Positions 4,140-25,729 of a stretch of DNA of 27,147 bases are shown piece after piece. The position numbers were made by a program, and so were the translations under genes. This stretch comes from a virus, in the UHGV virus genome UHGV-1347488; one strand, given 5' to 3'. Within the stretch, counting starts at the first letter, position 1; every line of letters begins with the position of its first letter. The notes under the pieces are model-generated. The model did not search any database and had not been told where the DNA came from. It was given only the letters and a program-made list of their open reading frames with translations.

Positions 4140-4613
4140 TTAAAAGTAATTTATCTGCACATCTAATGGATTTTTTACCGACTGTCTATATGCTTCGATT
4201 GCCTTATCAACAAAATGCGTTGCTTCACGAAATCCGAAGTATGGCACATCCGCAAACTTGCCATGTGTCTGCCATCCCTCATTTAAGAGCAATGCCGTAT
4301 TAATAGACTTACCATCTAGGCCAGTATGCCATGCTCCATCACCGAAGCCGAGACGAACACTGACAAACATCTTTGTTCCTTTTACCTCTGTATACACTCT
4401 GCTGTCAGTTAATAGGGAATGCTGTAATGCAAAGGTTCTCTTATATAAAACAGGCATATAAGAAGCGTACACCACCCATAGTTGCTGAGAGATGCACGCT
4501 GCTAATATATCTGCATGGTGCCGAAGTTCCTGTTCAATCGTCTTGCCGTTGTCCAGTTTCATTTTGGATACATCCATACTTTTGAGGAGCTTCTTTAAGC
4601 TGTTTTTGTCCAT
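4140..4613 (-). CDS. Hypothetical protein immediately upstream of the tape measure gene (tail-assembly-chaperone position; no recognisable motif)
   Basis: 157-aa ORF, ATG with RBS AAGGGGAG 6 nt upstream; stop 18 nt before the TMP start. Lies in the -1 frame relative to the preceding ORF and overlaps it by 19 nt. Confidence 0.55.
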   Translation of the reverse strand: MDKNSLKKLLKSMDVSKMKLDNGKTIEQELRHHADILAACISQQLWVVYASYMPVLYKRTFALQHSLLTDSRVYTEVKGTKMFVSVRLGFGDGAWHTGLDGKSINTALLLNEGWQTHGKFADVPYFGFREATHFVDKAIEAYRQSVKNPLDVQINYF

Positions 4614-5140
4614 AGCTGCTCCCCTTCATGTGCCTTGTGCGGACCAAATAAAGCAAGATTGAGCGCATTTTTCTGAATTTCACTAAAAGTAGGATACTTT
4701 TCGCTGATCTTAGAAAGAGTTTCTATCAAATTATGAGAATTAGCAGCAAATGATATCTCAATACCCATTTTGCTTAACACCCAGTCAATATGTTCAAAAT
4801 CTTCTTTGGTGAGTGCACCCATAAGATTAAGAATAGGCATAGAATTAAATTTAGGAGATTCCGGTGCGCTCTTCCTTGAAGTTACTTTCTGCACCTTTCC
4901 ATCTGTGATATTTTTAAGAAGCTCCATTTGATGTAATGCCTCTGAATATTGCGCCATTGTAATCGAAGCATTCAAATTCCATTCATGGTATGAAACTTCT
5001 CCATTTACCATAGCCAAAATTGTTCGCAAATCCACAAGACTCAGCAATTTATCAAATTTATCTCCATCGGAATCTTGATTGTTTTCAGCCATCAATCTCA
5101 TTAAATCTGTGTAAGTATATTTTTTTTTTGTGTCTGCCAT
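4595..5140 (-). CDS. Hypothetical protein (possible tail assembly chaperone by position only)
   Basis: 181-aa ORF, ATG with RBS GGGGAGGA 9 nt upstream; 3' end overlaps the next ORF across an A-run (GACAAAAACAG). Confidence 0.55.
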   Translation of the reverse strand: MADTKKKYTYTDLMRLMAENNQDSDGDKFDKLLSLVDLRTILAMVNGEVSYHEWNLNASITMAQYSEALHQMELLKNITDGKVQKVTSRKSAPESPKFNSMPILNLMGALTKEDFEHIDWVLSKMGIEISFAANSHNLIETLSKISEKYPTFSEIQKNALNLALFGPHKAHEGEQLWTKTA

Positions 5141-5166
5141 ATTAGCAAGTCCTCCCCTTTTATGTT

Positions 5167-5334
5167 TTAATTAAATACAATGTTCTTATAATGTTTTCTA
5201 ATCTCGCTCAATGTGAGTTTAGACTTCGCCCTGCTGCCATCAGCGGAAACCAGATAAACGGTATTCCAAAGTGTAGCCAGGACGGTATACATCTTGTCTC
5301 CATCTGAGACGATTGTTCCATTTTTAAGATTCAT
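5167..5334 (-). CDS. Small hypothetical protein (55 aa), absent from the ORF track
   Basis: Translated by hand: MNLKNGTIVSDGDKMYTVLATLWNTVYLVSADGSRAKSKLTLSEIRKHYKNIVFN; ATG preceded by AAAGGAAAAA; fills the gap between the HTH gene and the 181-aa gene. Confidence 0.3.
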   Translation of the reverse strand: MNLKNGTIVSDGDKMYTVLATLWNTVYLVSADGSRAKSKLTLSEIRKHYKNIVFN

Positions 5335-5374
5335 ACAATTTTTCCTTTATTGGAATTGGTGGCGAAGTGCCGGA

Positions 5375-5563
5375 TTAATTTTTTGATTCGAAATATGCCG
5401 ATAATTTGGCAAAAGATTTTTTTCCTAAATTCATTTTGTTCCGCTTAAATCCAGACAGAACATCTTTATTGATACCAGTCACAGTACAAATATAGCTTGC
5501 CTTGACTGCCTGTAACTCATCATTTAATTTTGCTCGTAACTCTTCCTGGGTCAGTTTTATCAT
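5375..5563 (-). CDS. Small helix-turn-helix DNA-binding protein (Cro/XRE-like regulator)
   Basis: 62-aa ORF; HTH-like segment ICTVTGINKDVLSGFKRNK; paralogous to the 5742..5930 product. AAGGAG abuts the ATG (short spacer). Confidence 0.5.
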   Translation of the reverse strand: MIKLTQEELRAKLNDELQAVKASYICTVTGINKDVLSGFKRNKMNLGKKSFAKLSAYFESKN

Positions 5564-5717
5564 CTCCTTCTGTGTAAAATATCATAATTTTTTATGTTTA
5601 AAAAAATAAAAGTCGTAATCATACGCAATGCCCCGCCGCTGTTTGAGGACGGCGAGGTATCACATGGGGAAACAAAACGCATTACATCTAAACGCAACAC
5701 CTATTATTTATAATAAA

Positions 5718-5733
5718 ACACTTGCGCAAGTGT
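5718..5733. promoter_or_regulatory. Perfect 16-bp palindrome ACACTTGCGCAAGTGT (candidate operator, or stem of a minus-strand terminator)
   Basis: Read directly; sits 9 bp past the stop of the 5742..5930 HTH gene and about 155 bp upstream of the 5375..5563 HTH gene; followed on the minus strand by a T/A-rich tract. Confidence 0.4.
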
Positions 5734-5741
5734 AATATTAC

Positions 5742-5930
5742 CTATGGGATTATAACTTTTGATAAATACTCCTCAAGCCTGACTGCATCCTCTTCGCAGA
5801 GAAACAGTTTGCCAGTCTTAAAATTTGATAAAATGTACTGTGGAATTCCGGTCTTTTTTGAAATAGCTTTTGCAGCAAGACCATCATTCAGTACAGCTAT
5901 AAGATGATTTTTTAAATCAGTCTGATTCAT
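5742..5930 (-). CDS. Small helix-turn-helix DNA-binding protein (Cro/XRE-like regulator), paralog of 5375..5563
   Basis: 62-aa ORF; segment ISKKTGIPQYILSNFKTGK aligns with the other small HTH protein; ATG with RBS AAAGGAGAG. Confidence 0.55.
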   Translation of the reverse strand: MNQTDLKNHLIAVLNDGLAAKAISKKTGIPQYILSNFKTGKLFLCEEDAVRLEEYLSKVIIP

Positions 5931-5976
5931 GCTGCTCTCCTTTCCCGTATTTCACAATTATCTTTTAAAAAATTTT

Positions 5977-6001
5977 AGGAAGAGGAATCTCTGTCCTCTC
6001 C
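5977..6001 (-). terminator. Candidate intrinsic terminator downstream of the 999-aa gene
   Basis: Minus-strand imperfect hairpin GGGAGAGGACAGAGATTCCTCTTCC followed by TAAAATTTTTT. Confidence 0.3.
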
Positions 6002-6087: not shown

Positions 6088-9087
6088 CTACGAAACTGAT
6101 GTTCGTTTCTTTCTGAGCGCATTTTCACGACTGCATGATTCAGAACAGGTTAACGCATTGCCCCACTTAATGTATGGCTTTTGACAGATGATACAATCGC
6201 AGACCTTCTTTTTACCATTATAACGGTAAAAGTACGGCAGCAGCTTCTTAGCCTTATATGGAATCTCGTAAGCAAGTGTTTTTTCTTCCGGCTGATATTC
6301 CAACTGAATTTCTATATAGTCTGCATTCTGCTCTGTACTGATAGCTCCTATTTTAGCCAATCGTGCAATGCCTTTCTTGGCAATCGTAACGTCACCTTCC
6401 AACATCTTATCAATGGCCCCATAAGTCAATGCAGATTTTTTGCCGGAATAAATCTTGATGTTTCCAAATCTCTTTGATAAAATCAATAGGACGAATAAAA
6501 GTTCTCGGTCGTTTTCGGCAGTCGATTTTTTATATGGCTGATTATCAATCCATCCTAATTCTTCCTTATAAATCTGCACCGATTTTTCATCAACTTTCAA
6601 AACGGCCTTTGTAGCACTGTCTGCTACCTTTTCCATCTTAATTACCTTTTCTGTGGTGTATCTGGCTCTCCGCCGCTTAACTTCACAGCCTTTATTCTTC
6701 CGAACTGTATCAGCAATTACATCCCCGAAGCAGTTCCAAAGGATATTTTTTCCTGACATGGCAGTTCCTTCATTGCGCTGCATATATTCATATTCCAAAA
6801 GATATTGTGTGGCTCTTCCCCTATCTGGAATAATCTGTAGAATTAATCTTTCGCACAACAGATAGAACACCTCGTATCGACTAATTTTTTCAGCGAAGCC
6901 ATCTGATTTTGTCTGATGTTCAAGTTCTTTCTGAATGTACTGTTCAAGTTGTTTGGCCCTGGCTTTTAAATCGAACATCAGCTTTTCCAACTGACCGTAT
7001 ACGGCATCTTTAACATTTATGGTCATAGACTGGTCAAACAAGATTGATGGGTCAAATTTTTTGCCGTCCTTATTATATGACTTGTTTCCAGTCTGCTTAT
7101 GGATATACTGGCAAATACGGTCACAGATGCTATCACTTGGTGCTGCACAGTTTTCTTTCTTCTTACCTTTTGCATAGATAAAGAAGTAAGGCGGCTTCTT
7201 TGCTTTCAGTTCCAGATACTTTGCTTCGTACTCTCCCAGAGACACATTTTTCTGGCTCTTCGGAAAATCAATAGTCAGATTGTTGTAGCAGCACATAACG
7301 GCATTGAAGTCATCGTCAATTTCCTTGCTGTTATAATTCTTGGTCATGACGTTGGAAATATCACCAATGTTTGAATTGTTCATGCTTGCCACCAGTGCCG
7401 TATAAATTGCATCCGGTGTAACTGGCGTTTTCTCCGCTGAAAAAGATGTATAATATAAGGTATGTTTATCATCGGGGACACAATCCATCATGGCCTGATT
7501 CGGGGTCAGAAGAATCTCATCCCCATCAACATCAAACTGTAAGACCCGGCATAACAGATCATGACCGCTTACTACGGTATCCAAATCATTAAACCATTCT
7601 TTGCATCTTTCAAGGTCAACACCTTTTACCAGATTGCGAATTCCATGCTCCATATACAGGTGAGGACTTCGCAGACAGTCAACCTTTTCATACGGCTTAT
7701 CATTGAAGAAACTGTTATATACATGATTACGTGGAATCAAACCTTTTGGATTCTCAATGCCACAGAACAACCACTCACAGAAGGCATATAAATCAGGGCA
7801 AATATAGCTATACAGTGAATCCGGCAGAATCAGCTTGCATCCTCGGGCATCGGTGCGTTCGGATTTAAACTTGTTCTGTAGTTGATACTGAACATATTTA
7901 TCTCTCAACATATTTTCTGGATCAGCTTCGACCGCTTCCGCTAAATCACTGTCACCCAAAAGCTTCACGATTTTATCTGGATTCTGTTTCAGGTCTGCCA
8001 GATAATCAATGGTCGGCTTGCATAACTCTTCCATCTTCTCATCAGTGAACTTTTGACTGTCTAAAGTCTGCAAAAACTGATAACTGGTTTTAGCGTAACC
8101 TTTCGGTTCTGTGTCCGCAAATTTATTGATTGCAATTCTCATGCCGTTTGCTTTGAATGCGGCCTTGTACTCTTCCCATGATTTATAGTAGGCGTGCATT
8201 TTTAACTGTGAAGCAGTCAGAATAACTTGAATGTCCTCTGCAATAACATCATGCTCATTTCCCCACGCATCCTTAATAATTGGACTCGGTTTTACTCCTT
8301 CTACGGATGGCTGTGCAAGAAACTTGCGGAAATCAAATGGGAAAATACAGCCTTTCATATGTGCGCATCTGATTTGTGCCGATGCAGGAAGGACACCAGG
8401 CAGAAACATTCCGGCTCCATCAGTTTGAGGAATCTTTATATGTTCCGTCCTTACCTCAATGCCAGTGATAGTTTCATCATCGTGGTCAATGCACTTAACC
8501 TCTTCATCCAGATAGGTTTCAAAGTCACCTACCACAAGGCACTTATCAATATTCAATTCGTAATTGGTGGGAATAAATGATGTTGATAGCGGTAGTCCCT
8601 TATATGCAAGATACTTACCAGTATTACAACCGCCATTAGAGTTAATGAGTTCGTTTGTCAGACCGCACATGAATTGTTTTTCATGCTGTCGGTAAAAATC
8701 CTCTTTGATTAGGATAATCTCACCACGCTTCATCTGATTTGTGGTTGAACTATAAAAGATGTAATGTGTGCCGTCAATGTCTACGCCATTCTGTAGAATC
8801 TGTTTCAGAATCGTATTCTGCTGTGCCACTTTTAGATAAATAATCTCGGTCAACACTGGCGTTCCATCCATAGAATCTGTAGTGTATCGTCCCATCTCGC
8901 TCTCAAAGAGTGCAATCTGATTGTCGGTGCGCTCTTCATCGTTTAGAGATAATGCCGATTTGTAAATCTGCCGGACACCTGTGAAAGATTCTATTAGATT
9001 GTCTCGCTGTTTTTTCAGATACAGCTTGGTGTTTGCTTTTGTGGATTCCTTGTATGCTTTGTGTGCGTTCCGCTCCTCATCGGTCAA
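6088..9087 (-). CDS. Large polymerase-like protein with DxDGD motif; candidate YonO-like single-subunit two-barrel RNA polymerase (C-terminal Cys cluster)
   Basis: 999-aa ORF containing FDVDGDEILLTP, which resembles the metal-binding NADFDGD loop of RNAP beta-prime, YonO and cellular RdRPs; C-terminal CDCIICQ…CSESC. Listed start is TTG with no clear RBS, so the true start is uncertain. Confidence 0.5.
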   Translation of the reverse strand: MTDEERNAHKAYKESTKANTKLYLKKQRDNLIESFTGVRQIYKSALSLNDEERTDNQIALFESEMGRYTTDSMDGTPVLTEIIYLKVAQQNTILKQILQNGVDIDGTHYIFYSSTTNQMKRGEIILIKEDFYRQHEKQFMCGLTNELINSNGGCNTGKYLAYKGLPLSTSFIPTNYELNIDKCLVVGDFETYLDEEVKCIDHDDETITGIEVRTEHIKIPQTDGAGMFLPGVLPASAQIRCAHMKGCIFPFDFRKFLAQPSVEGVKPSPIIKDAWGNEHDVIAEDIQVILTASQLKMHAYYKSWEEYKAAFKANGMRIAINKFADTEPKGYAKTSYQFLQTLDSQKFTDEKMEELCKPTIDYLADLKQNPDKIVKLLGDSDLAEAVEADPENMLRDKYVQYQLQNKFKSERTDARGCKLILPDSLYSYICPDLYAFCEWLFCGIENPKGLIPRNHVYNSFFNDKPYEKVDCLRSPHLYMEHGIRNLVKGVDLERCKEWFNDLDTVVSGHDLLCRVLQFDVDGDEILLTPNQAMMDCVPDDKHTLYYTSFSAEKTPVTPDAIYTALVASMNNSNIGDISNVMTKNYNSKEIDDDFNAVMCCYNNLTIDFPKSQKNVSLGEYEAKYLELKAKKPPYFFIYAKGKKKENCAAPSDSICDRICQYIHKQTGNKSYNKDGKKFDPSILFDQSMTINVKDAVYGQLEKLMFDLKARAKQLEQYIQKELEHQTKSDGFAEKISRYEVFYLLCERLILQIIPDRGRATQYLLEYEYMQRNEGTAMSGKNILWNCFGDVIADTVRKNKGCEVKRRRARYTTEKVIKMEKVADSATKAVLKVDEKSVQIYKEELGWIDNQPYKKSTAENDRELLFVLLILSKRFGNIKIYSGKKSALTYGAIDKMLEGDVTIAKKGIARLAKIGAISTEQNADYIEIQLEYQPEEKTLAYEIPYKAKKLLPYFYRYNGKKKVCDCIICQKPYIKWGNALTCSESCSRENALRKKRTSVS

Positions 9088-12934: not shown

Positions 12935-13940
12935 AATGCCTTTCTCCTTTATTTTGATATATGTATATAGAAGATTCTCTATCTGGAATCTTGTTTTATC
13001 GTGATGATGAAGGTTACGGCAAATTTACCAGAACCTTTGTATGGGGATCGGGTTTACCAAATTCGGTAAAGTTGGTTTATCATGCTCCAATTATGGATAA
13101 TATTATGTAAACAAAATAGACATATCCAGAAATGGACATTAATCTTCGATATCTATTTTTGCTATTTGTCCGCATATTTCCCATCTGTCCGTATATCCAC
13201 CATCGGGAACAGAACATTAAGAAACACCTGTATTTCCTAGCGTTTCTCATCGTACCAACTAGAAACTGAATCATCTGCCAACGCCAGACTAGCACTCTGA
13301 GCCAAAACAGTCTTAATGTCTTTAATTCCCAGTATTTATATAGGATTTAAGCATTTCCAAGTAAATTCAGGCTTATCGGTAGTGACATCGCAAAAAGGAA
13401 GTAAATCCTTACCTTTTCAGCATTGGTATCCCATAAATTGAACATCTAAAAATTCAAAAATTTTATACTTTTGACCGTAAAACCCTTGTAATCCTTACAT
13501 TTTTACGATACCGATTTTCTTTCCGAAGTCTCCATGATTTTTCACATTTTTGCGATAAACCTATCCGGCACGATTTCTGGCCCAGTTATTCCAACGCTCA
13601 CACTTAGCTTCTGCTTTCTCCTGTGTATTAAATACACACCGTCTACGGATACCAACACAAGAATCAGTATCAGATACATGAATCTTTACTCTTAGATTCT
13701 CCTTGCCTAGATCAGATACAACAATTCCAGTCTGCACCTTCCAGATGCGTCGATTCTTCCGTTTAACCAGAAACCTTTGAATGAACCACACCTGCTGTCC
13801 CTCTGTAAATACCAACTGAATCACTCTCCTTTTGATTTGGACATTTTGTTTATGTCTAAATTTGCACGATAGCTCACCCAAATGAGCCTTATTTTACTGG
13901 ACTTTAGACACATTCTATAGGGAAAAATGGGACCATGGAA

Positions 13941-14305
13941 TTTGCATTATCCAAAGTCCTACAAAGCTAGTAAATAAGCCATTTTTACGATTATATATAC
14001 GCAAAATTCATACCTATCATTTTGCATTATTCCGTTCATTTCATACATTGTTCACTCATTGAATTTTTAAAATTCTTATTGCTTTGCCATCGAAAATGTG
14101 CTAAAATAAGTTCAACTAAAAAGATTATGCAAATGATTTTTTAAGTTATTTTTTTGCATTATAGAAAGTCGAGAAACCCTTGATTTTACTAGCTTTTAGA
14201 CACAATTAACATGCAAAATTCATACCATGGATTTGCATTATAGAAAGTCGGAAATCCCTTGTAATTACTGGGTTTTGGTGACAATTAACATGCAAAATTC
14301 ATACC
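13941..14305. repeat. Array of about 74-bp direct repeats with 5-bp spacers (period about 79 bp); candidate origin or iteron/promoter array
   Basis: Units 13941..14014, 14153..14226 and 14232..14305 each start TTTGCATTAT and end (A/C)GCAAAATTCATACC; spacers ATGGA/TATCA; a diverged longer unit at 14020..14152 and a partial unit at about 13900..13940. The last two units are about 85% identical. Confidence 0.7.
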
Positions 14306-14342
14306 TATGTATAGAATGTATTATATACCGATAGGTATACGT

Positions 14343-16250
14343 CTAAGCCATTAGCTTAATGGTAATATCAATATCATCTTTACTCTTATCAATTCCAACC
14401 ACTTTATCAGTATTAGGATTATCAACAATCACACCACCATCATTACAAGTATTATCATTATACTTATTAGTGTGTTTTTGCGAGTAAATATTATACCAAT
14501 TTCCTTTATCACTTCTATTCTGTATCACATCAATACACTGCGCAGATTGCAGGTTCTTAATTGCTTCAATAATGTTCGGTTTTCCGAAATGAAGAATCCT
14601 ATCCATTTCCTCAATCGTACATGCACGACCATTTCTGATGTTGTTTACGATACACAGAAATACCTTAAATTCATTCTGTGTAATCTGCTTCGCAATGAAC
14701 GCTCTTGCCGCACTGTAGTAAAACTCAATATACTTATCATTAAAGTCTTTCAATCCTCTTTTGATTTTAATTTTCGTCAAATCAAAGGAATTTTTTGACT
14801 TGTTTTCCGGCTCTACTAATTCAATACAATGATGCGCTACCAAGCGTTCTAAAGTATCTTTAAATGTTCTTATATCCATGCAAAGTTGCCATTTCCCATG
14901 TATTTTGTACTGCATTTTCATCTTCAAATTTCTAATTGTAAACGGTGTTTTAGAACCGCTCTTGATGTATTTATAAAGGATCGTCATAATCAGATATTCA
15001 AATCCGCTCATGCTGATGTCCTTGTCATTTCTCAGCCGATTATCCGTCAACAGCTTCTGTGACATCTTCACGCCAATATCTTCCTGAATGGAAATAACTT
15101 TCTTCTGAACAGCTTGCATACAATGGAGTTTGTCGCACTGCGCCTGTACCATCTTTTTCACACGTTCATCCGGTATCTGCTCCCAACAACCATTTAAACG
15201 GTAAATGTTTTCATGATCCAGATATGCGTCAATATCTTTCTTTACCTCATTTGAATTCTTCGGTGGTCTACACCTGGTATTCCAGTCAAGACAGATTTCA
15301 CGAACTTTTGATTCTGTGTATCCGTCATATCTCAGCATGGAAACAATACGGCCTAACCAAGTATTGCGCTCACCCTCGTCTGCTCCCTCACGAAGAACTT
15401 TTTCAGTACATAAACACGGATATGTTTTCAGATTAAGGCCATCACCGGAATAATCCCATTTTTCCAACGGTTTGCTTTCTAGTTGGAACTGTTCTTTTTT
15501 CAGTTCGTTTTCTACTCTTCTTCTGATAAATGCGGTGTCCATAGGGTGATAACCTGCCACTTGATTATCATGCTTCTTGTAATGGTCAACTTCCTTTACA
15601 AGCGGAAACTTGCCGTTTTCATCTGGATGTTTGCGGTTATAGGTGCATGGGATTCTGGCTACCTGTGTCACCTTGCAAGCGTTTGTATCTGCTCCTACTA
15701 TCTGGCAAATCATCTTGTTCAGTTCTGATAAATCTCTGACCTTACAAGTCGGTTTCACAATCACATAGAAGTGGTATCCATGTCCAGAATCATACACTGC
15801 ATGGACAAATAAATCTGGTAATTTATCCCTAATCAGCTGCCGAAATTCTTCTACACTGTGGAGATTTTCATGGTCTTTTTTATCGAAATCAATGAATAAA
15901 ACCCTCTGCTGTCTCATATTGGCTTCACGCCTATGTAATTCATTTTTGCGGTCATATTTTACTGTTGCAAGTGCATTATAAATATGATAATTGTGTCTGT
16001 ACTTCATGATACACTCAACGTACTGGTCAAAATTTTTTACATAGCGGTGGAACTTAATCTCGTTTCCATCTTTATCTAATGCCGGATTACCCTGTTCATC
16101 CGTTTTTGCAATGAACAAACAAATAAATTCTTTTTCTTCCAGTTTGGAAGGGTATAACATCTCATAGTATCTTTTTAAATGATTGCTAATAGTAGTACCT
16201 TCTTTCTTACCATTCTGTCGGTAGTAAAATTGTTGTTCTTGTGTCCTCAT
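14343..16250 (-). CDS. Archaeo-eukaryotic-type primase-polymerase (PrimPol-like replication protein)
   Basis: 635-aa ORF with AEP motifs in order: VLFIDFDKKD (DxD), DSGHGYHFYV (sxH) and ARIPCTYNRK (R-x-P-G/C-x-N); large C-terminal domain. The start has a weak RBS and is overlapped by the upstream ORF. Confidence 0.65.
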   Translation of the reverse strand: MRTQEQQFYYRQNGKKEGTTISNHLKRYYEMLYPSKLEEKEFICLFIAKTDEQGNPALDKDGNEIKFHRYVKNFDQYVECIMKYRHNYHIYNALATVKYDRKNELHRREANMRQQRVLFIDFDKKDHENLHSVEEFRQLIRDKLPDLFVHAVYDSGHGYHFYVIVKPTCKVRDLSELNKMICQIVGADTNACKVTQVARIPCTYNRKHPDENGKFPLVKEVDHYKKHDNQVAGYHPMDTAFIRRRVENELKKEQFQLESKPLEKWDYSGDGLNLKTYPCLCTEKVLREGADEGERNTWLGRIVSMLRYDGYTESKVREICLDWNTRCRPPKNSNEVKKDIDAYLDHENIYRLNGCWEQIPDERVKKMVQAQCDKLHCMQAVQKKVISIQEDIGVKMSQKLLTDNRLRNDKDISMSGFEYLIMTILYKYIKSGSKTPFTIRNLKMKMQYKIHGKWQLCMDIRTFKDTLERLVAHHCIELVEPENKSKNSFDLTKIKIKRGLKDFNDKYIEFYYSAARAFIAKQITQNEFKVFLCIVNNIRNGRACTIEEMDRILHFGKPNIIEAIKNLQSAQCIDVIQNRSDKGNWYNIYSQKHTNKYNDNTCNDGGVIVDNPNTDKVVGIDKSKDDIDITIKLMA

Positions 16251-19269: not shown

Positions 19270-19338
19270 CGTGTATCTCCTTTAGGAAGTGCGGCAAGCG
19301 GAATCCCCACTCACCACACTGTATACTAGATTCTCTAC

Positions 19339-20031
19339 TTACTCCGGTTTCTTGCAGTAAACCAACTTGACCGTGGTAAACGGCTGACCGTAAGGGAAGA
19401 TACGGAAGCAGCGCATATCTCCGGTGGTCTTGGACTGAAACTCGTTGCAGCTGTCATCGAATACAGTCAGGGCATAATTGGTACCATCAGCATTGACCCG
19501 GAGTTTCAGATTGTCCTCATCACATTCATCAATGAAAGCATTCCCGCCGTAGATGTTCATGTTCAGCGCAAAGCTGTCAGACACATTAACAGATACCAGA
19601 TAGTAACCGTTCGTGCCGTGAAGTGCTTCGTCCATGAAGGTCATCATATTGTCCAGGTCAACTTCATGCCAACCTTCTAAATCATCGGCTGACCACTCGT
19701 TAAAGAATGTCAGGCACAATTTCTGATCGTCCGGCAAGTCGAATTGCAGAATCAAATAGTTGCCCTCTTCTTCATCTTCTTTCAGGGTAGCGTTGGTCAT
19801 ATCTTCATATCTGATTGCGATACCGTTTGTACCGTCAAGAGTGCCGGACTGGTAGAACTCAATCTTATCCTCAAACAGCTCACATCTGTTGGCATACAGC
19901 TTTACTACATCGTCACCCTCAGCGTCCGTTACAACAACCTGTGTGATATTGTAGGCTTCAACTAAGGATTTGATGTCCTCTGCATTAATCTTTTTGGCAC
20001 TGGTTTTAACTCTCTTTACTACTTCGTTCAT
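19339..20031 (-). CDS. Hypothetical acidic protein (230 aa) downstream of the tubulin-like GTPase gene
   Basis: ATG with RBS GAGGAAA; no recognisable motif; its position could correspond to an accessory partition factor, but that is unproven. Confidence 0.65.
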   Translation of the reverse strand: MNEVVKRVKTSAKKINAEDIKSLVEAYNITQVVVTDAEGDDVVKLYANRCELFEDKIEFYQSGTLDGTNGIAIRYEDMTNATLKEDEEEGNYLILQFDLPDDQKLCLTFFNEWSADDLEGWHEVDLDNMMTFMDEALHGTNGYYLVSVNVSDSFALNMNIYGGNAFIDECDEDNLKLRVNADGTNYALTVFDDSCNEFQSKTTGDMRCFRIFPYGQPFTTVKLVYCKKPE

Positions 20032-20072
20032 GTGTTATTTCCTCGATTTTCCTATATATTGGTCGTTCCGTC

Positions 20073-21179
20073 CTACTTACTGATTCTTCTGGCTTTCAGT
20101 TGCTCTAACGCTGACAGGCCGCTACTAGTCGGCTTATGCTCTGGTTCCTTCTTGACCGCAAACACACTGGATGTTCTGGCGGTGCGCACCTGTGTAAGAG
20201 CCTTCAAAGAGTTCTGCACGCTCTCAGCTTCTTTTTCTACGGATTCTGCTAACGCATCAATCCGGCTGTACGGCATCACCAGGCCGCTAAGGATCACCAC
20301 ATTTTCACCGGAATCTGAAACATATCCGTGATATTCGGTCGGTGCTGTACCTACGGCTTTCCGGAGTTCCGCAATATCAATCTTGCTCTCTTTTGCTGAT
20401 ACCGCTTCGGAAATACCCATAATGCTGACCGTCTTATCTTCCCGCTGTGCAAAAATATTGCTCTCACGGGTCAGAATATCCACGATATAACCCGTTGTGC
20501 CATTGGCTGCATTAGTGGCAACGATTACAGAAAATGACGGACAATGTAAGCAGCTTTCAATCTCTGCCAAATCCATATTGCCGTCCTGGGATTTATTGTT
20601 AATGCAAAGCACTGCTGTCATCAGTCTGGCGAATGCTCGGTTGATCTGCAACTTCTCACCGGAGTTATTGTCCAGCATGAAAATGCTTCCCAAACTCGGC
20701 TTTAATTCCTCGATTTCCTCAAAGGTCTGTCTGGCATTATCTCTGATTTTTAAGGATTCCGTATCTGCCGGAATAACCACAACCAGACACACTTTGTATC
20801 CCATCTCTAACAGGATTCTTGCCAACATTGGCCCCATTGCAGAGCCGGTTCCACCGCCCATTGAAAATGCGATAAATACTGTGCTGCCCTCGATTATGTA
20901 CTGCTGCAATTCATCCAGAATACTATCAACATTTTCCGCAAGTGCATCTAAGCTGCGCTCCCTGTTGCCTGCTGCCCCATTACAGTTTTTCACATGGATT
21001 TTGTGGGACAGATTAACCGCCGATAAATCCTCGGTACTGGTGTTGATACCAACAAAGGATACGCTGTCTTTGCTGCCATCCAGTTCCATAACCTTCTTTT
21101 CAACCTCAGAAATGACCTGGCATCCGCACTGACCGCATCCGATAAAGGTAGCTTTTAATCTCGTATTTAATTTTTTCAT
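20073..21179 (-). CDS. Tubulin/FtsZ-superfamily GTPase, TubZ/PhuZ-like (putative partition or positioning cytoskeletal protein)
   Basis: T1-loop-like GCGQCGCQ near the N-terminus and tubulin signature-like FSMGGGTGSAMGP; internal ATG (MKKLNT…) with RBS AGAGGAG 7 nt upstream, chosen over the track's 21206 start; begins 4 nt after the stop of the upstream small HTH gene. Confidence 0.7.
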   Translation of the reverse strand: MKKLNTRLKATFIGCGQCGCQVISEVEKKVMELDGSKDSVSFVGINTSTEDLSAVNLSHKIHVKNCNGAAGNRERSLDALAENVDSILDELQQYIIEGSTVFIAFSMGGGTGSAMGPMLARILLEMGYKVCLVVVIPADTESLKIRDNARQTFEEIEELKPSLGSIFMLDNNSGEKLQINRAFARLMTAVLCINNKSQDGNMDLAEIESCLHCPSFSVIVATNAANGTTGYIVDILTRESNIFAQREDKTVSIMGISEAVSAKESKIDIAELRKAVGTAPTEYHGYVSDSGENVVILSGLVMPYSRIDALAESVEKEAESVQNSLKALTQVRTARTSSVFAVKKEPEHKPTSSGLSALEQLKARRISK

Positions 21180-21183
21180 AGAC

Positions 21184-21444
21184 TTACTCCTCTTGTTCCA
21201 TCTCATCCATCCATTGAATTCCTGTGGAAGTAATATAGTAGGTTTTGGCGTTTAACTGGTTCATACCATATTTGATGTATCCCAGATTAATCAGCTCCTT
21301 TAGATGCTTATAGATAACCTTGTAAGAGTATTTGATACCAATCTCTGCAAGACCCTCTTCAATCATCTTCTGAGTAGCCGCAACTAACTTGCTTCTTGCT
21401 TCCGCATGGAATAGGACGTTGAGAATTTCGTAATTTGTACGCAA
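21184..21444 (-). CDS. Small winged-HTH protein upstream of the tubulin-like gene (TubR-like by position and size)
   Basis: 86-aa ORF with TTG start and AGGAAGG RBS; helix-wing segment YKVIYKHLKELINLGYIKYG…NAKTYYITSTG; arrangement resembles tubR-tubZ operons. Confidence 0.45.
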   Translation of the reverse strand: MRTNYEILNVLFHAEARSKLVAATQKMIEEGLAEIGIKYSYKVIYKHLKELINLGYIKYGMNQLNAKTYYITSTGIQWMDEMEQEE

Positions 21445-21804
21445 ATAAAATCATCCTTCCTATATTCAGTTGTAGTGTTTCTTCTATATAAAGTGTGGGA
21501 AATGCCGCAGCAGAACGCTGACAGCAATTTGACAAATAAAAAAAATCATGATAATATACTTTTGAACATTTGTTACATGGTCGTTTACCAGACGATCACG
21601 TTATTACCATGAAAGCCTTCTGTCATCACGGTGTTACCAGCACCAGACAGGAGGTTTTTCATTTATCTTACCGCTCACTATATATCAAATTGGAACTCTG
21701 TTCCTATCCTGTTTGTTTATTATTGGTTCTGTGTTTCATCTCTGTTGTACCTCTTTTCCTTTGATGGGTTAAGTATAGCACTGTATGATAACCTAGTCAA
21801 GTAG

Positions 21805-21947
21805 TTTTGTATTATTTTTATATTTTTTGTATTATAATATTTTTATGTGTATTATTTTATTGTATTTGCACCAATTTTGTATTATAAAATAGTGTTTTCC
21901 TATTTTATTTAATATCTTCGTTGAAAAAAAACGGATTTTGTATTATT
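21805..21947. repeat. Iterated TTTTGTATTAT(T/A) motif, 5-6 copies (candidate operator or centromere-like repeats)
   Basis: Copies at 21805, 21825, about 21847, 21875 and 21936; the last overlaps the putative promoter of the 21971 gene. Confidence 0.5.
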
Positions 21948-21949
21948 CT
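21921..21949 (+). promoter_or_regulatory. Candidate sigma70-type promoter for the 21971 gene (-35 TTGAAA, 17-bp spacer, -10 TATTCT)
   Basis: Hexamers read directly; followed by RBS GAGGTGAG and the ATG at 21971. Confidence 0.3.
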
Positions 21950-21970
21950 AAACATATGAGGTGAGATAAA

Positions 21971-23083
21971 ATGCTAGGAAAAAAAATTATTTTAAATGAT
22001 GCTATCCGTGATTCTATCACTAGATTTAGGAAAAGCAAAATGAAAGAACACCCCGAATTAACCGCAGATGGCATTTCAGAAAAAATAGGAAGATCTAAGT
22101 CTTGGTTATCTCAAGTAGNNNNNNNNNNNNNNNNNNNNNNNNNNNNNNNNNNNNNNNNNNNNNNNNNNNNNNNNNGAGCAGATTTCAATTTTAAATATGA
22201 ATATGATGCAGTAGCCAAACGTGTAGATAATGAAATCATGTTAATAAATGCATTCATTAAACATGGTATTGCAGATGAAAACGGTAATATACTTGATTTC
22301 CATGAGAGTCTACGATTAGAGCAATGTAGAGGTTTTCTTCGACAAGCCGGAAAAATGACAGATTGTTATATTAAGGAATATTTACAAAACCCAATTCAGG
22401 AAATTGAAAAAAAAATTAAAACTGAGATTCATAATGTTTTAATTGAAATTGTTCGATGGATAAACAGAGCTTTTGATGACACTGCTGATTTATTTTCTGA
22501 TGAAGTGTCAACTAAAAATTTATATTGTTTACTGGAAACGGCATATACTATTTTTAATGCTCATTGTGATTATTTCGGCCTAAATCCTTTAACCGCCACA
22601 GATACTGATTTAAAAACCTTAAAGAACAAATTAAATACGGATTGTTTTATAAAACCACGAACGGTATTAAAACCTCTTGATGATTATACAGAATCAGAGT
22701 TCAAGGAAGTGGTTAAAAATTTTTCTTCCGAAGAATATATGCAATGGAAAAACAAGCGCATTTATATTGGTGATGATCCATTTCCTATGACTGTTGGTTT
22801 TATTGATAGTAAAAAAGAACGGCATACCCCACTACACTATATAACTTATCCAGATTTAAATAAAGCTACCGGATTATCTGAAAAGGAATATCTCTATATC
22901 ATTAAGCAAGTTTATTTACAATTTGATATTTTTTATAAAGATTGTCAATCGTTAAGAGATGATTTGGAATTTTATAAAGATGAAAATGATCAGTATTACG
23001 ATGAAATTCAAGAATTAAATGAACGTATAAATGAACTCACCAATAAACTTAATACTGAGTCAGAGAAGCCACCAGAGGAATAA
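21971..23083 (+). CDS. HTH-domain protein with large C-terminal domain of unknown function (370 aa; reading frame interrupted by an N run)
   Basis: RBS GAGGTGAG; N-terminal XRE-like segment (…LTADGISEKIGRSKSWLSQV…); C-terminal coiled-coil-like region; very AT-rich codon usage. Confidence 0.65.
   Translation: MLGKKIILNDAIRDSITRFRKSKMKEHPELTADGISEKIGRSKSWLSQVXXXXXXXXXXXXXXXXXXXXADFNFKYEYDAVAKRVDNEIMLINAFIKHGIADENGNILDFHESLRLEQCRGFLRQAGKMTDCYIKEYLQNPIQEIEKKIKTEIHNVLIEIVRWINRAFDDTADLFSDEVSTKNLYCLLETAYTIFNAHCDYFGLNPLTATDTDLKTLKNKLNTDCFIKPRTVLKPLDDYTESEFKEVVKNFSSEEYMQWKNKRIYIGDDPFPMTVGFIDSKKERHTPLHYITYPDLNKATGLSEKEYLYIIKQVYLQFDIFYKDCQSLRDDLEFYKDENDQYYDEIQELNERINELTNKLNTESEKPPEE
22119..22175. other. 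Run of 57 N (assembly gap or masked segment) inside the 21971..23083 ORF
   Basis: Literal n characters; length is a multiple of 3, so the frame is preserved. Confidence 0.95.
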
Positions 23084-23147
23084 TCCCCTAGTGGCTTCTT
23101 TCATGTCACACCTTATTTCAAATGTCTCCATGTTTTAGGTCATAGAA

Positions 23148-23183
23148 AAGACACCCTGGGTTACGGGGTGTCTTGGTTTTGTT
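23148..23183. terminator. Hairpin between convergent genes (AAGACACCC / loop / GGGTGTCTT, then GGTTTTGTT); likely a bidirectional terminator
   Basis: 9-bp stem followed by a T-rich tract on the plus strand; located between the stops at 23083 (+) and 23189 (-). Confidence 0.5.
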
Positions 23184-23188
23184 ATTGG

Positions 23189-24055
23189 TTATTTCAAATA
23201 CAATGGATGGCTATTATCGTCCGCTTCCTTCTCAAAGTCACCATTGAATTTATATTGACCCTGGTGATCGGGTTTACTATTATAAACTTCATAGCCACCA
23301 TTTTCAAAATCTGTGGATAAATACACATCCAATTTGGGACTTTTAAAAACCTGTCTTTTAGGAGATTGTCCATCTCTCTTTTTAGCTTTTCGCTTATTTA
23401 AAGCGGTAAGTTTAGAATCGTATGTATACTTATTTCGTTCTGCAACTTCCATTCCAATTTTATGAAGGGTTGCTATTTTATCATCAATTGAATTAGAACG
23501 TAATATTTCAGATCTCCATTCGTTATATCCATTACACAATACAGATGCTGGAAACTTATTATTAAATGATGGGACAGAAATTTGTATTAATTCATCTTGT
23601 TGAATCCATCTTTTAATATTTGAATCAACTTCCTGATCAAAATTTCCTATAAAAAATATTTTATCATTCAATTGTTTTTGTTGTAACTCTCTATGCCGTC
23701 TATCTTTAATGTATGGGATTACAACAATATTATCTTCTGATATACTTAGAATATATTTTATTTTTCCAACAAAAGCCTTCGTAAAACCGAGATTATTCAA
23801 AGCAATGTCTTCAGCTTCTGACACAAGACCTGCATCATATTTATCTACCTTATGAGTTTTTAAAATTGAATGATTTACCTCTCTGAACCTGGAAGATCTG
23901 TTATATGACTTTGTGGAAGTTGCAAAAGGTTCAAACATAACTAATTTTGCATTGAAAAAATTTTCAACAACTAATAAAAAATCATTCAAGTATTTTTGCT
24001 GTTCAATGCTTGTTTGATAAAATTTTTCATCGATAAGTATTTTATATGTTGGCAT
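23189..24055 (-). CDS. Unknown-function partner protein of the ABC ATPase (288 aa; candidate effector of a two-gene defence-like module)
   Basis: ATG (MPTYKILIDEKF…) with RBS CAGGAGAG; start lies 1 nt after the ATPase stop codon; basic C-terminal region (KRKAKKRDGQSPKRQ); no HNH-type Cys/His pattern. Confidence 0.7.
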   Translation of the reverse strand: MPTYKILIDEKFYQTSIEQQKYLNDFLLVVENFFNAKLVMFEPFATSTKSYNRSSRFREVNHSILKTHKVDKYDAGLVSEAEDIALNNLGFTKAFVGKIKYILSISEDNIVVIPYIKDRRHRELQQKQLNDKIFFIGNFDQEVDSNIKRWIQQDELIQISVPSFNNKFPASVLCNGYNEWRSEILRSNSIDDKIATLHKIGMEVAERNKYTYDSKLTALNKRKAKKRDGQSPKRQVFKSPKLDVYLSTDFENGGYEVYNSKPDHQGQYKFNGDFEKEADDNSHPLYLK

Positions 24056-24056
24056 A

Positions 24057-25487
24057 TCAACTCTCCTGTTTCTGCAAATTTCTATATCCAACATCTATGA
24101 TTTTAGCTGTTTCATTTGAAAATTGATAAAAGAAATTTTCATTTTCACATAATGCCCCGTCAACTTCATCAATCACTATAGGTGTTATAAAAGACATACC
24201 TAATTCATTCTGATCTACAAAATAGATTTGAATTTTATCACGTACCTCTACATCCTCCATATAGCGTCTAACAATTCTATTTACAAAATGATCACTATGA
24301 GTTTCAATAACAACAGATTTATCATGTGTGGAGAGGGATAATAAAAAATCTGCCATTCGCATTTGCATTTTAGGATGCAGGTGAATTTCTGGCTGTTCCA
24401 AAATCAAGGTTTGATTCGAAGACATAATAATTCCTTCGGCTAAAATTGGCAATGACTGACTAATTCCAAATCCAACATCAACCAAATTATGTTTATTTAT
24501 TCTTACTTTTACTAAATCTTGTTGTCTATTATCAAGGAATAGCGTACCTAATTCTAAATATTGCATCCATGAACCAATTAAATCAATAAATTTATTTGAT
24601 TCACATACTGTCTGTGACGGCACATAATTATCTTCCGATTCAGGAGCCATAACACCTACCACAGTATTTTTTTGTTTATTCTTCAATAACAGAGGGGTAT
24701 CTTCACCGGATACACCAACATCAACAACCTTTTTGTCTGCGATATAACGTCTCATAGGATTTTCTCTCAATGGAGCAATATATTGTAATTGAATATACTG
24801 AGATGGAAGAATACTAAAAATTGAAGTTAAAGTTGGAATAAACAATTTTGTAGAAGGATTCATACGTTCTTCGTAAATACTATTTAAAGTCATATTACGA
24901 AAATAACAGATAGCATTGTTAATATTAAAATCTCCTAAATTCCCAGCAACATCTGGGATTTGTGTTCCGCGAACAGTATATGTCTTTTTCCCATTTCTGC
25001 ACAATTCAATTCGTGAATTGATTGAGCCAGTTTTTAATTCTACTTCAATATTAACATCAATGGCATGTAATTTATTTGCATATAAAGAAGCGCCACTATT
25101 ATCAATAGAAACACAATAATTGATGATGAATTTTTCGACATCGTTTCTATAATATAATCTATTCAAATCACGAAACTGAACGTTATCTTTTGAAGCGGTT
25201 TCTTTTGAACGTTTAAGTTCAAAAGTATTGCTAATCGTAAAGAAATTTTCTGAATGTTGATCACACAAAATCTCAGAAAATGTTCCATTGTCTATATATT
25301 TACCGTTAAATAACATTTGGTCGGATGTATTAGTATCTTCAAAAGTTTGCTTTAACATCAGCAAGCTTTTTAAAATAGAACTTTTACCGCTGCTATTTAC
25401 ACCGCACAATACGGTCAGTGGCGCAATCTCTATATCGGTCTTATCTTTAAAGCACTTATAATTTTCCAAACTTATAGATTTCAGCAT
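24057..25487 (-). CDS. AAA15/AAA21-type ABC ATPase (OLD/AriA/PtuA/AbiLi-like)
   Basis: N-terminal I.SI.L.NYKCF with Walker A GVNSSGKS; Q-loop-like QYIAPLRE; signature-like GFGISQSLPILAEG; Walker B LILEQPEIHLHP; H-loop ETHSDH. ATG (MLKSISL…) preceded by GGAGGT at 6 nt. Confidence 0.8.
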   Translation of the reverse strand: MLKSISLENYKCFKDKTDIEIAPLTVLCGVNSSGKSSILKSLLMLKQTFEDTNTSDQMLFNGKYIDNGTFSEILCDQHSENFFTISNTFELKRSKETASKDNVQFRDLNRLYYRNDVEKFIINYCVSIDNSGASLYANKLHAIDVNIEVELKTGSINSRIELCRNGKKTYTVRGTQIPDVAGNLGDFNINNAICYFRNMTLNSIYEERMNPSTKLFIPTLTSIFSILPSQYIQLQYIAPLRENPMRRYIADKKVVDVGVSGEDTPLLLKNKQKNTVVGVMAPESEDNYVPSQTVCESNKFIDLIGSWMQYLELGTLFLDNRQQDLVKVRINKHNLVDVGFGISQSLPILAEGIIMSSNQTLILEQPEIHLHPKMQMRMADFLLSLSTHDKSVVIETHSDHFVNRIVRRYMEDVEVRDKIQIYFVDQNELGMSFITPIVIDEVDGALCENENFFYQFSNETAKIIDVGYRNLQKQES

Positions 25488-25729
25488 TCCCATACCTCCA
25501 TAATCTCCTTTCATTTTACCAAAATTTACCAGTTACTACAATGAGAACGTGTGTATATAGATTCGATATTTTAAAATATTTTTTTATGAAAGAAGCTGCC
25601 GGAATATACCAACGGCTCCCGCATTATTCCTTTCCAATCTTCCACTTAGCAAGTTCTTCCCCCAGGACCCAGCTCAATTCTTTGTACTGCTCCGGTGTGA
25701 GGGTCGTGCCGCATTTTTCTTCCACATTC

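Follow-up and report, generated by a model that had tools for sequence, protein, structure and literature searches.

A direct-repeat array upstream of tubR in a gut phage most likely serves a divergent Cro/CI-type regulator

In known TubZRC systems the centromere, tubC, always lies upstream of tubR and consists of direct repeats in blocks that cover the operon promoter (PMC6009700, PMC5016525). The locus described here raises the question of which protein reads an array of short direct repeats in such a place. The array lies between a tubR-like gene and a divergent gene at 21971 that encodes an HTH protein of 370 residues (HTH370), within a window of 27,147 bases (the whole stretch of DNA that was analysed). 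The initial annotation, which had described these flanking genes correctly, offered two readings of the repeats, as operators of the HTH protein or as a tubC array for TubR. The window is phage DNA, with genes for a tape-measure protein, a YonO-like single-subunit RNA polymerase, a ClpX-like ATPase and a pol/primase-like protein. The YonO-like polymerase is a 999-aa protein (6088-9087, minus strand; Pfam RdRP, 1e-14; phrog_8308, 7e-148), so some phage genes may use non-sigma-70 promoters. The genes around the array are as follows.

20073-21206, minus strand: tubZ, encoding a tubulin/FtsZ-like GTPase (Pfam Tubulin, 1.5e-21)
21184-21444, minus strand: tubR-like winged-helix gene, 86 aa (best solved relative TubR 6tey, E 1e-3)
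21971-23083, plus strand: HTH370 gene, 370-aa regulator with a Cro/CI-type HTH, a helical middle domain and a predicted 60-residue C-terminal helix

The best solved relatives of the TubZ in the window are TubZ of phage c-st and RepX. Directly downstream of tubZ lies a 230-aa gene (19339-20031, minus strand) with no family assignment that is conserved in the L006 group of loci at 24-25% identity (L006-L012, at about 7200-7860). The position downstream of tubZ sometimes holds accessory partition proteins. A third group of TubZ phages (L001-L005; for example, L002 at 4561-5989) is without an HTH370-type gene; immediately ahead of its tubR there is instead another winged-helix gene (91 aa), preceded by a 171-aa protein.

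The iterated motifs first reported at 21805-21947 are borne out by a recount. Between 21805 and 21946 the array holds four exact copies, one near copy and one degenerate copy of an 11-mer, all on the plus strand.

21805-21815, plus strand: O1, TTTTGTATTAT, exact, 4 nt from the leftward -35
21825-21835, plus strand: O2, TTTTGTATTAT, exact, 20 bp from O1
21845-21855, plus strand: O3, ATGTGTATTAT, one mismatch in the 9-nt core, invariant GTATTAT kept
21858-21868, plus strand: doubtful degenerate copy, TATTGTATTTG, read from the sequence, three mismatches
21875-21885, plus strand: O5, TTTTGTATTAT, exact, with the promoter-proximal copy 61 bp further on
21936-21946, plus strand: candidate promoter-proximal operator, TTTTGTATTAT, exact, lying over the spacer and the first -10 bases of the HTH-gene promoter

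Exact copies of TTTTGTATTAT number four in all 27,147 bases (starts 21805, 21825, 21875 and 21936), every one of them on the plus strand and inside the reported interval. Dinucleotide shuffles of the whole window give an expectation of 0.05 copies, and in 100 such shuffles the count never rose to four. Because the array region has a G+C content of only about 29%, we added a stricter local test, in which any 11-mer reached four copies in 5 of 2,000 dinucleotide shuffles of 21801-21970. Measured against AT-rich DNA, a check that the initial annotation had proposed, the motif is thus commoner than in the shuffles at both scales. From start to start the good copies lie 20, 20, 30 and 61 bp apart, near whole helical turns, which agrees with the spacing of 20-30 bp plus one of about 60 bp that had been claimed.

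The array occupies the gap between two divergent sigma-70-like promoters.

21772-21800, minus strand: predicted leftward promoter, TTGACT-17-TGc-TATACT (consensus scan, extended -10)
21921-21949, plus strand: predicted HTH-gene promoter, TTGAAA-17-TATTCT (consensus scan; -35 kept across loci)

The leftward promoter matches 10 of 12 consensus positions and points toward tubR, tubZ and the phage early genes via a leader of about 320 nt; none of the sites in the window overlaps its core (-35 to +1). On the other side, the -10 of the HTH-gene promoter (TATTCT, 21944-21949) ends 22 nt before the start codon at 21971, and its first three bases are covered by the last copy of the repeat, an overlap that had been correctly pointed out from the start.

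The N-terminus of HTH370 has the lambda-CI/Cro fold (pSK41 Cop is among the fold matches), and the protein thereby has the lambda-repressor-like HTH of an immunity repressor. Its predicted C-terminal helix of 60 residues probably oligomerises. A second trait of phage immunity repressors, inducible inactivation (for example, by S24 self-cleavage), was not recognised in HTH370: neither a LexA/S24-type cleavage domain nor any other known induction domain came up in Pfam, NCBIfam or PHROGs. No family assignment was obtained from Pfam, NCBIfam, PHROGs or PADLOC, the family profile had no significant match among solved structures, a search of BFVD gave no match at E up to 0.001, and no recognisable relatives were found for the C-terminal 300 residues. 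The family is rare, with 19 homologues detectable in 5.8 billion protein clusters; at E up to 1e-30, a set of 1.84 billion representative proteins yields eight clusters. Relatives were obtained solely from the protein database with its contigs and from a single metagenome scan; viral_contigs and genome_contigs, searched by protein and by profile, contained none, and a near-identity DNA search of 19300-23200 against phage and plasmid records gave no match.

A run of N at 22119-22175 masks the HTH370 codons right after the recognition helix. At 372 aa, the unmasked protein (P0001; L017:3755-4870) exceeds the open reading frame of the window by two residues, so the run does not preserve the original length. 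L017 is a metagenome contig of the same phage; its TubR, its TubZ and the 260 nt compared ahead of the HTH370 start codon are identical to those of the window. Immediately beyond the HTH370 gene the window carries a low-GC (about 30%) cargo island (23189-25514, minus strand) with a defence-like pair, an NsnC-like protein (301 aa, E 1e-9) and an NsnB-like AAA_15 ATPase (485 aa, E 4e-65). At this site L017 has a different ATPase (40% identical) and other relatives have toxin-antitoxin pairs; it is thus a variable hot spot for cargo.

For comparison we assembled 11 non-redundant loci, with HTH370 homologues that are 37-61% identical, and recovered the DNA around the homologues. All 11 loci carry the (T)TTGTATTAT(T) motif, always on the strand of the regulator. 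A matrix of 50 sites from these loci gives the consensus T-T-(T/c)-G-T-A-T-T-A-T-T, and the positions of the GTATTAT core (for example, G3 and A5) are conserved in 46-50 of the 50 sites. The TATTGTATTTG copy at 21858 is considered doubtful because two of its three mismatches fall on invariant positions of this matrix and it is out of phase with the others. The layout recurs as well. Ten of the 11 loci have their first copy 2-4 nt away from the TTGACA of the leftward promoter, the exception being L018/L026, with the nearest matching copy about 25 nt away. The next copy follows at +20 in nine loci, with an additional copy at +9/10 in most, and the distance from the distal cluster to the last copy is 61-63 bp in 10. 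In 10 of the 11, a TTGAAA/TTGCAA -35 precedes that last copy by 14 nt, and the ATG follows it at 30-40 nt. In L013 the proximal copy is more distant from the start codon than elsewhere, and the distal cluster of the window has about 40 bp extra relative to its relatives. The form TTGACA-17-(TGn)-TAnnnT is conserved in the leftward promoter of every HTH370 locus, whereas the DNA between and around the sites is not conserved. At the protein level, all family members keep the invariant segment GR(S/A/T)KSWLSQ(V/I)ENGRL, with the predicted recognition helix inside it; between the same loci, TubR is 34% identical at the median (range 19-60%).

These regularities bear on the simplest explanation, that the repeats arise by chance in AT-rich DNA or are stacked -10-like or UP-element sequence with no specificity for a protein. 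The motif does include the -10-like TATTAT, the region is 29% G+C, and the bare pattern TTGTATTAT-N11-TTGTATTAT is found in 86 viral contigs, none of which encodes an HTH370 relative. However, four copies are rare in the local shuffles, and a 9-11-mer recurs with the same strand and spacing in 11 diverged loci with unconserved flanks, which makes chance a hardly credible source of the array. As a marker of HTH370 in viral contigs, the bare two-site pattern was discarded as non-specific (86 matches, 0 near relatives).

Three comparisons indicate that the repeats travel with the divergent regulator and not with TubR. First, L013 and L014 are an integrating prophage with a tyrosine integrase (L014 is flanked by SmpB, RNase R and SecG) that carries HTH370, the repeats and the leftward promoter, and no TubR or TubZ was found within the 8 kb examined on either side. 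Second, L022 and L025 have regulators that are 76% identical and share operators and leader, and their TubR proteins are only 25% identical. Third, L006 and L011, two viral contigs reached through TubZ, are near-identical in TubR, TubZ and leader, whereas their divergent regulators and repeats differ: L006 combines a 370-aa regulator, 43% identical to HTH370 in its N-terminus, with palindromic ATATGTACATAT repeats, and L011 combines a 260-aa regulator with direct TATTGTATAATT repeats, two of which lie 20 bp apart. In L006 the leftward promoter (TTGACA 5356-5361, TATAGT 5379-5384) has one operator (5361-5372) within its spacer, and the promoter of the regulator gene has another over its -10. 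As in heteroimmune phages, three types of site pair with three types of regulator, and L006 and L011 differ only in this module. The surroundings are those of a lysogeny module, with the integrase 1.8 kb past the HTH370 gene in L013 and the prophage end and SmpB beyond the HTH370 gene in L014, and with the plasmid-maintenance genes tubRZ beside it in the window and nine other loci. Copies of the motif lie over or abut the promoters of both the regulator and the divergent early operon. Because the motif and its layout follow the HTH protein, are present without TubR and are swapped together with the regulator, the array most likely consists of operators of the neighbouring Cro/CI-type regulator and is not tubC. 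Of the two readings offered at the outset, HTH operators is thus the one that the comparison of 11 loci favours, and a tubC array for TubR falls for want of co-variation.

The tubC reading, in which TubR would bind the repeats, build the segrosome on them and autoregulate tubRZ, nevertheless has location on its side. The array lies upstream of tubR, in direct-repeat blocks at a distance of 360-500 bp, is divided into a distal cluster plus one proximal copy, and borders on the leftward -35. Between it and tubR there is no other significant iterated motif; when 21445-21800 was searched for a second one that might serve as tubC, no k-mer rose above the shuffles. Centromere-binding proteins normally co-vary with their centromeres (PMC7762940), yet here the motif stays invariant across TubR proteins of 19-60% identity, is found in the prophage L013/L014 without TubR and TubZ, and gives way to different repeats in L006 and L011, which share TubR. 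Furthermore, a distance of 360-500 bp separates the array from tubR, and the copies keep a constant arrangement with respect to the HTH-gene promoter. A centromere is therefore highly improbable, and TubR, which diverges across the loci that share the motif, is most probably not the reader of the repeats.

The leader between the array and tubR contains one more predicted element.

21529-21668, plus strand: predicted antisense small RNA unit (promoter TTGACA/TAATAT, hairpins, terminator) in the leftward leader 21445-21770

Its sigma-70-like promoter, with TTGACA at 21529 and a TAATAT ending at 21557, would produce an RNA of about 100 nt (21564-21665) with two to three hairpins that have 7-nt UUACCAG loops, followed by a terminator hairpin and a U-run ending near 21665. 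An equivalent unit occurs in all 11 HTH370 loci, including the TubR-less L013, with fold z-scores of -3.6 to -6.7, and a five-sequence alignment has compensatory changes in 7 of 26 pairs. The unit belongs to one control region with the array. The GGTAA/TTACC elements that recur in the leader were candidates for TubR sites but do not qualify: they form the loops of hairpins whose stems change in a compensatory way, and L022 and L025 have them in common despite TubR proteins of 25% identity. A search of the window against Rfam gave no match, and no tRNA genes were found in it.

Direct repeats about two turns apart, AT-rich and directly upstream of a gene whose promoter they overlap, are also what iterons of a plasmid-prophage origin would look like, with HTH370 as an initiator that is autoregulated through the copy in its own promoter. 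The swapping of regulator and repeats as a unit would fit incompatibility groups. Against this, Pfam, NCBIfam and PHROGs assign HTH370 to no Rep family and its HTH is of the repressor type, Cro/CI; a search of 21445-21970 for DnaA boxes was negative; and an integrating prophage retains the same module. With neither a recognised initiator family nor a DnaA box in that region, only the period of about 20 bp is iteron-like, and we consider an origin at this position very unlikely. A better candidate for the origin is the array at 13900-14340, upstream of the pol/primase-like gene.

This second array is intergenic, and the pol/primase-like gene follows at 14343-16250 (minus strand). It comprises a 79-nt tandem unit present 1.9 times (14153-14305) and three to four palindromic units ATGCAAAAT-N11-13-ATTTTGCAT(TAT), and may represent either an origin of replication or an operator for some other regulator. 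Copies of TTTGCATTAT at 13940-14241 were considered as extra operators of HTH370 and dropped, as they have a mismatch where 49 of 50 sites have T; they are part of the separate palindromic repeat and hence were not counted as operators.

A gene for an HTH protein divergent from tubRZ also recalls TubY and TubX. In pBc10987 the TubY gene lies upstream of tubRZ, and the protein binds the tubRZ promoter region and not the TubR sites (PMC7762940); TubY can activate tubRZ through its promoter region (PMC7762940, PMC5016525). If HTH370 were an analogue of TubY or TubX, it would be an activator of tubRZ and maybe an accessory of the segrosome, and not an immunity-type repressor. TubY has an N-terminal HTH and a C-terminal tetrameric coiled coil, and HTH370 is divergent from tubRZ and has an HTH and a predicted C-terminal helix of 60 residues. 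Moreover, the distal sites, at about -40 to -90 of the leftward promoter, are placed as activator sites would be. On the other hand, the HTH is of the Cro/CI type and not of the MerR type; the tails of HTH370 proteins are variable or acidic and a conserved lysine-rich amphipathic tail is absent; and no TubY turns up when solved structures are searched with the family profile (E up to 1). The family and its operators also occur in a prophage that lacks tubRZ. Finally, every locus has a leftward promoter close to consensus (TTGACA, 17 bp, TGn), for which an activator should be unnecessary, and L006 has its type of operator within the spacer of that promoter. Taken together, we consider a TubY-like or TubX-like activator unlikely.

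We put the probability that the repeats are the operator array of HTH370, in the lysogeny module of a temperate phage of gut Firmicutes, at roughly 0.7. In the mechanism that we propose, each asymmetric site of 9-11 bp (consensus TTTGTATTATT) would bind one HTH or one dimer. Binding of HTH370 would probably be cooperative, because the directly repeated sites face the same side of the DNA, and the C-terminal helix would supply the oligomerisation. The gap of 61-63 bp, which amounts to six helical turns, would permit a small DNA loop that bridges the distal cluster and the proximal site. The proximal site falls within the spacer and -10 of the promoter that drives the regulator gene, and its occupation would lead to negative autoregulation, a step that we infer from a proximal-site geometry conserved in 10 of the 11 loci. 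Occupation of the distal cluster, abutting the leftward -35, would repress the operon of tubR-tubZ and the early genes. Repression of the leftward promoter by HTH370 is the less certain of these steps. A site centred near -45 is a classic activator position too. In L006, the operator inside the leftward spacer together with the one over the regulator's own -10 suggests a geometry of repression. Precedents for the parts of the scheme exist: CopR of pIP501 represses from a site just upstream of a -35 (PMC4981023), the Cro/CI-type C repressors of P2 have direct repeats two to three helical turns apart, with operator sequence and spacing that vary among heteroimmune P2 relatives (PMC2995052), and phi105 and L5 have repressors with multiple asymmetric operators (PMC1934351). 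Full repression of the sole strong promoter upstream would fit only awkwardly with the need of a plasmid prophage for tubRZ expression.

Since a separate tubC was not located, a second role for the array can be imagined. HTH370 could be both an immunity-type repressor and a TubY-like partner of TubZRC, with the array doubling as part of the centromere or segrosome, an arrangement that we hold to be quite unlikely. It would mean that the C-terminal coiled coil holds the array together, that no separate tubC array exists, and that a pIP501-like circuit with an antisense RNA in the leader has been transplanted into a lysis-lysogeny switch.

With HTH370 as the probable reader of the array, a rare family of phage regulators of 350-370 aa gains a probable function and a DNA recognition sequence. 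The family is previously uncharacterised, and the principle of an operator switch is already familiar. The results also define a control region for temperate phages from gut metagenomes that are maintained either by TubZ/TubR partition or by integration, and describe a natural heteroimmunity-style exchange of modules, in which three types of regulator and operator sit on a common backbone. The strict 20/9/62-bp geometry invites structural study of how Cro/CI-type proteins read direct repeats. As a caution for annotation, a repeat array upstream of tubR is not always a centromere.

Among known systems, TubZRC with TubY resembles this locus in its direct-repeat blocks upstream of tubR (PMC6009700, PMC7762940) and in a neighbour with an HTH and a coiled coil that is divergent from tubRZ and is predicted to bind beside the tubRZ promoter. 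It differs in that the repeats described here follow the HTH protein and persist without tubRZ, and in that HTH370 is of the Cro/CI and not the MerR type and has no lysine tail. The plasmid pIP501 also has a site for a small-HTH-type repressor immediately upstream of a -35, a leader of about 320-330 nt and a convergent antisense-RNA promoter, with an RNA of about 100-136 nt that has hairpin loops (PMC4981023). However, CopR has 92 aa, binds one inverted repeat, does not autoregulate and controls the replication initiator gene repR (PMC4981023), whereas the first genes to be controlled here would be tubR-tubZ and the phage early genes, and the antisense RNA is a prediction. Considered as an inc18-type system, the window has a candidate repressor site upstream of the -35 and the predicted antisense unit, both of which all 11 loci display, and no convincing attenuator was identified in the window.

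Lambda-type CI/Cro switches share with this locus a regulator divergent from the early operon, several operators between the two promoters and an operator over the regulator's own promoter, which leads to autoregulation; in the integrating relatives, the HTH370 gene also lies beside the integrase or attachment end. In contrast to lambda-type switches, the sites here are asymmetric and direct, the regulator has no S24 self-cleavage domain, no Cro-like gene comes directly after the leftward promoter, and the sites miss the core of that promoter. The C repressor of P2 is a protein of 99 aa with two half-sites at one promoter in a switch of convergent promoters (PMC2995052), whereas HTH370 has 370 aa, a large helical C-terminal part and four to six sites that span two divergent promoters, with a conserved 62-bp gap; no sequence relationship between the two proteins was detected. 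Even so, P2 C has a Cro/CI-type HTH, like HTH370, and reads non-palindromic direct repeats about two turns apart at promoter elements (PMC2995052). The heteroimmune relatives among P2-like coliphages, as those described here, vary in repressor, operator sequence and spacing (PMC2995052).
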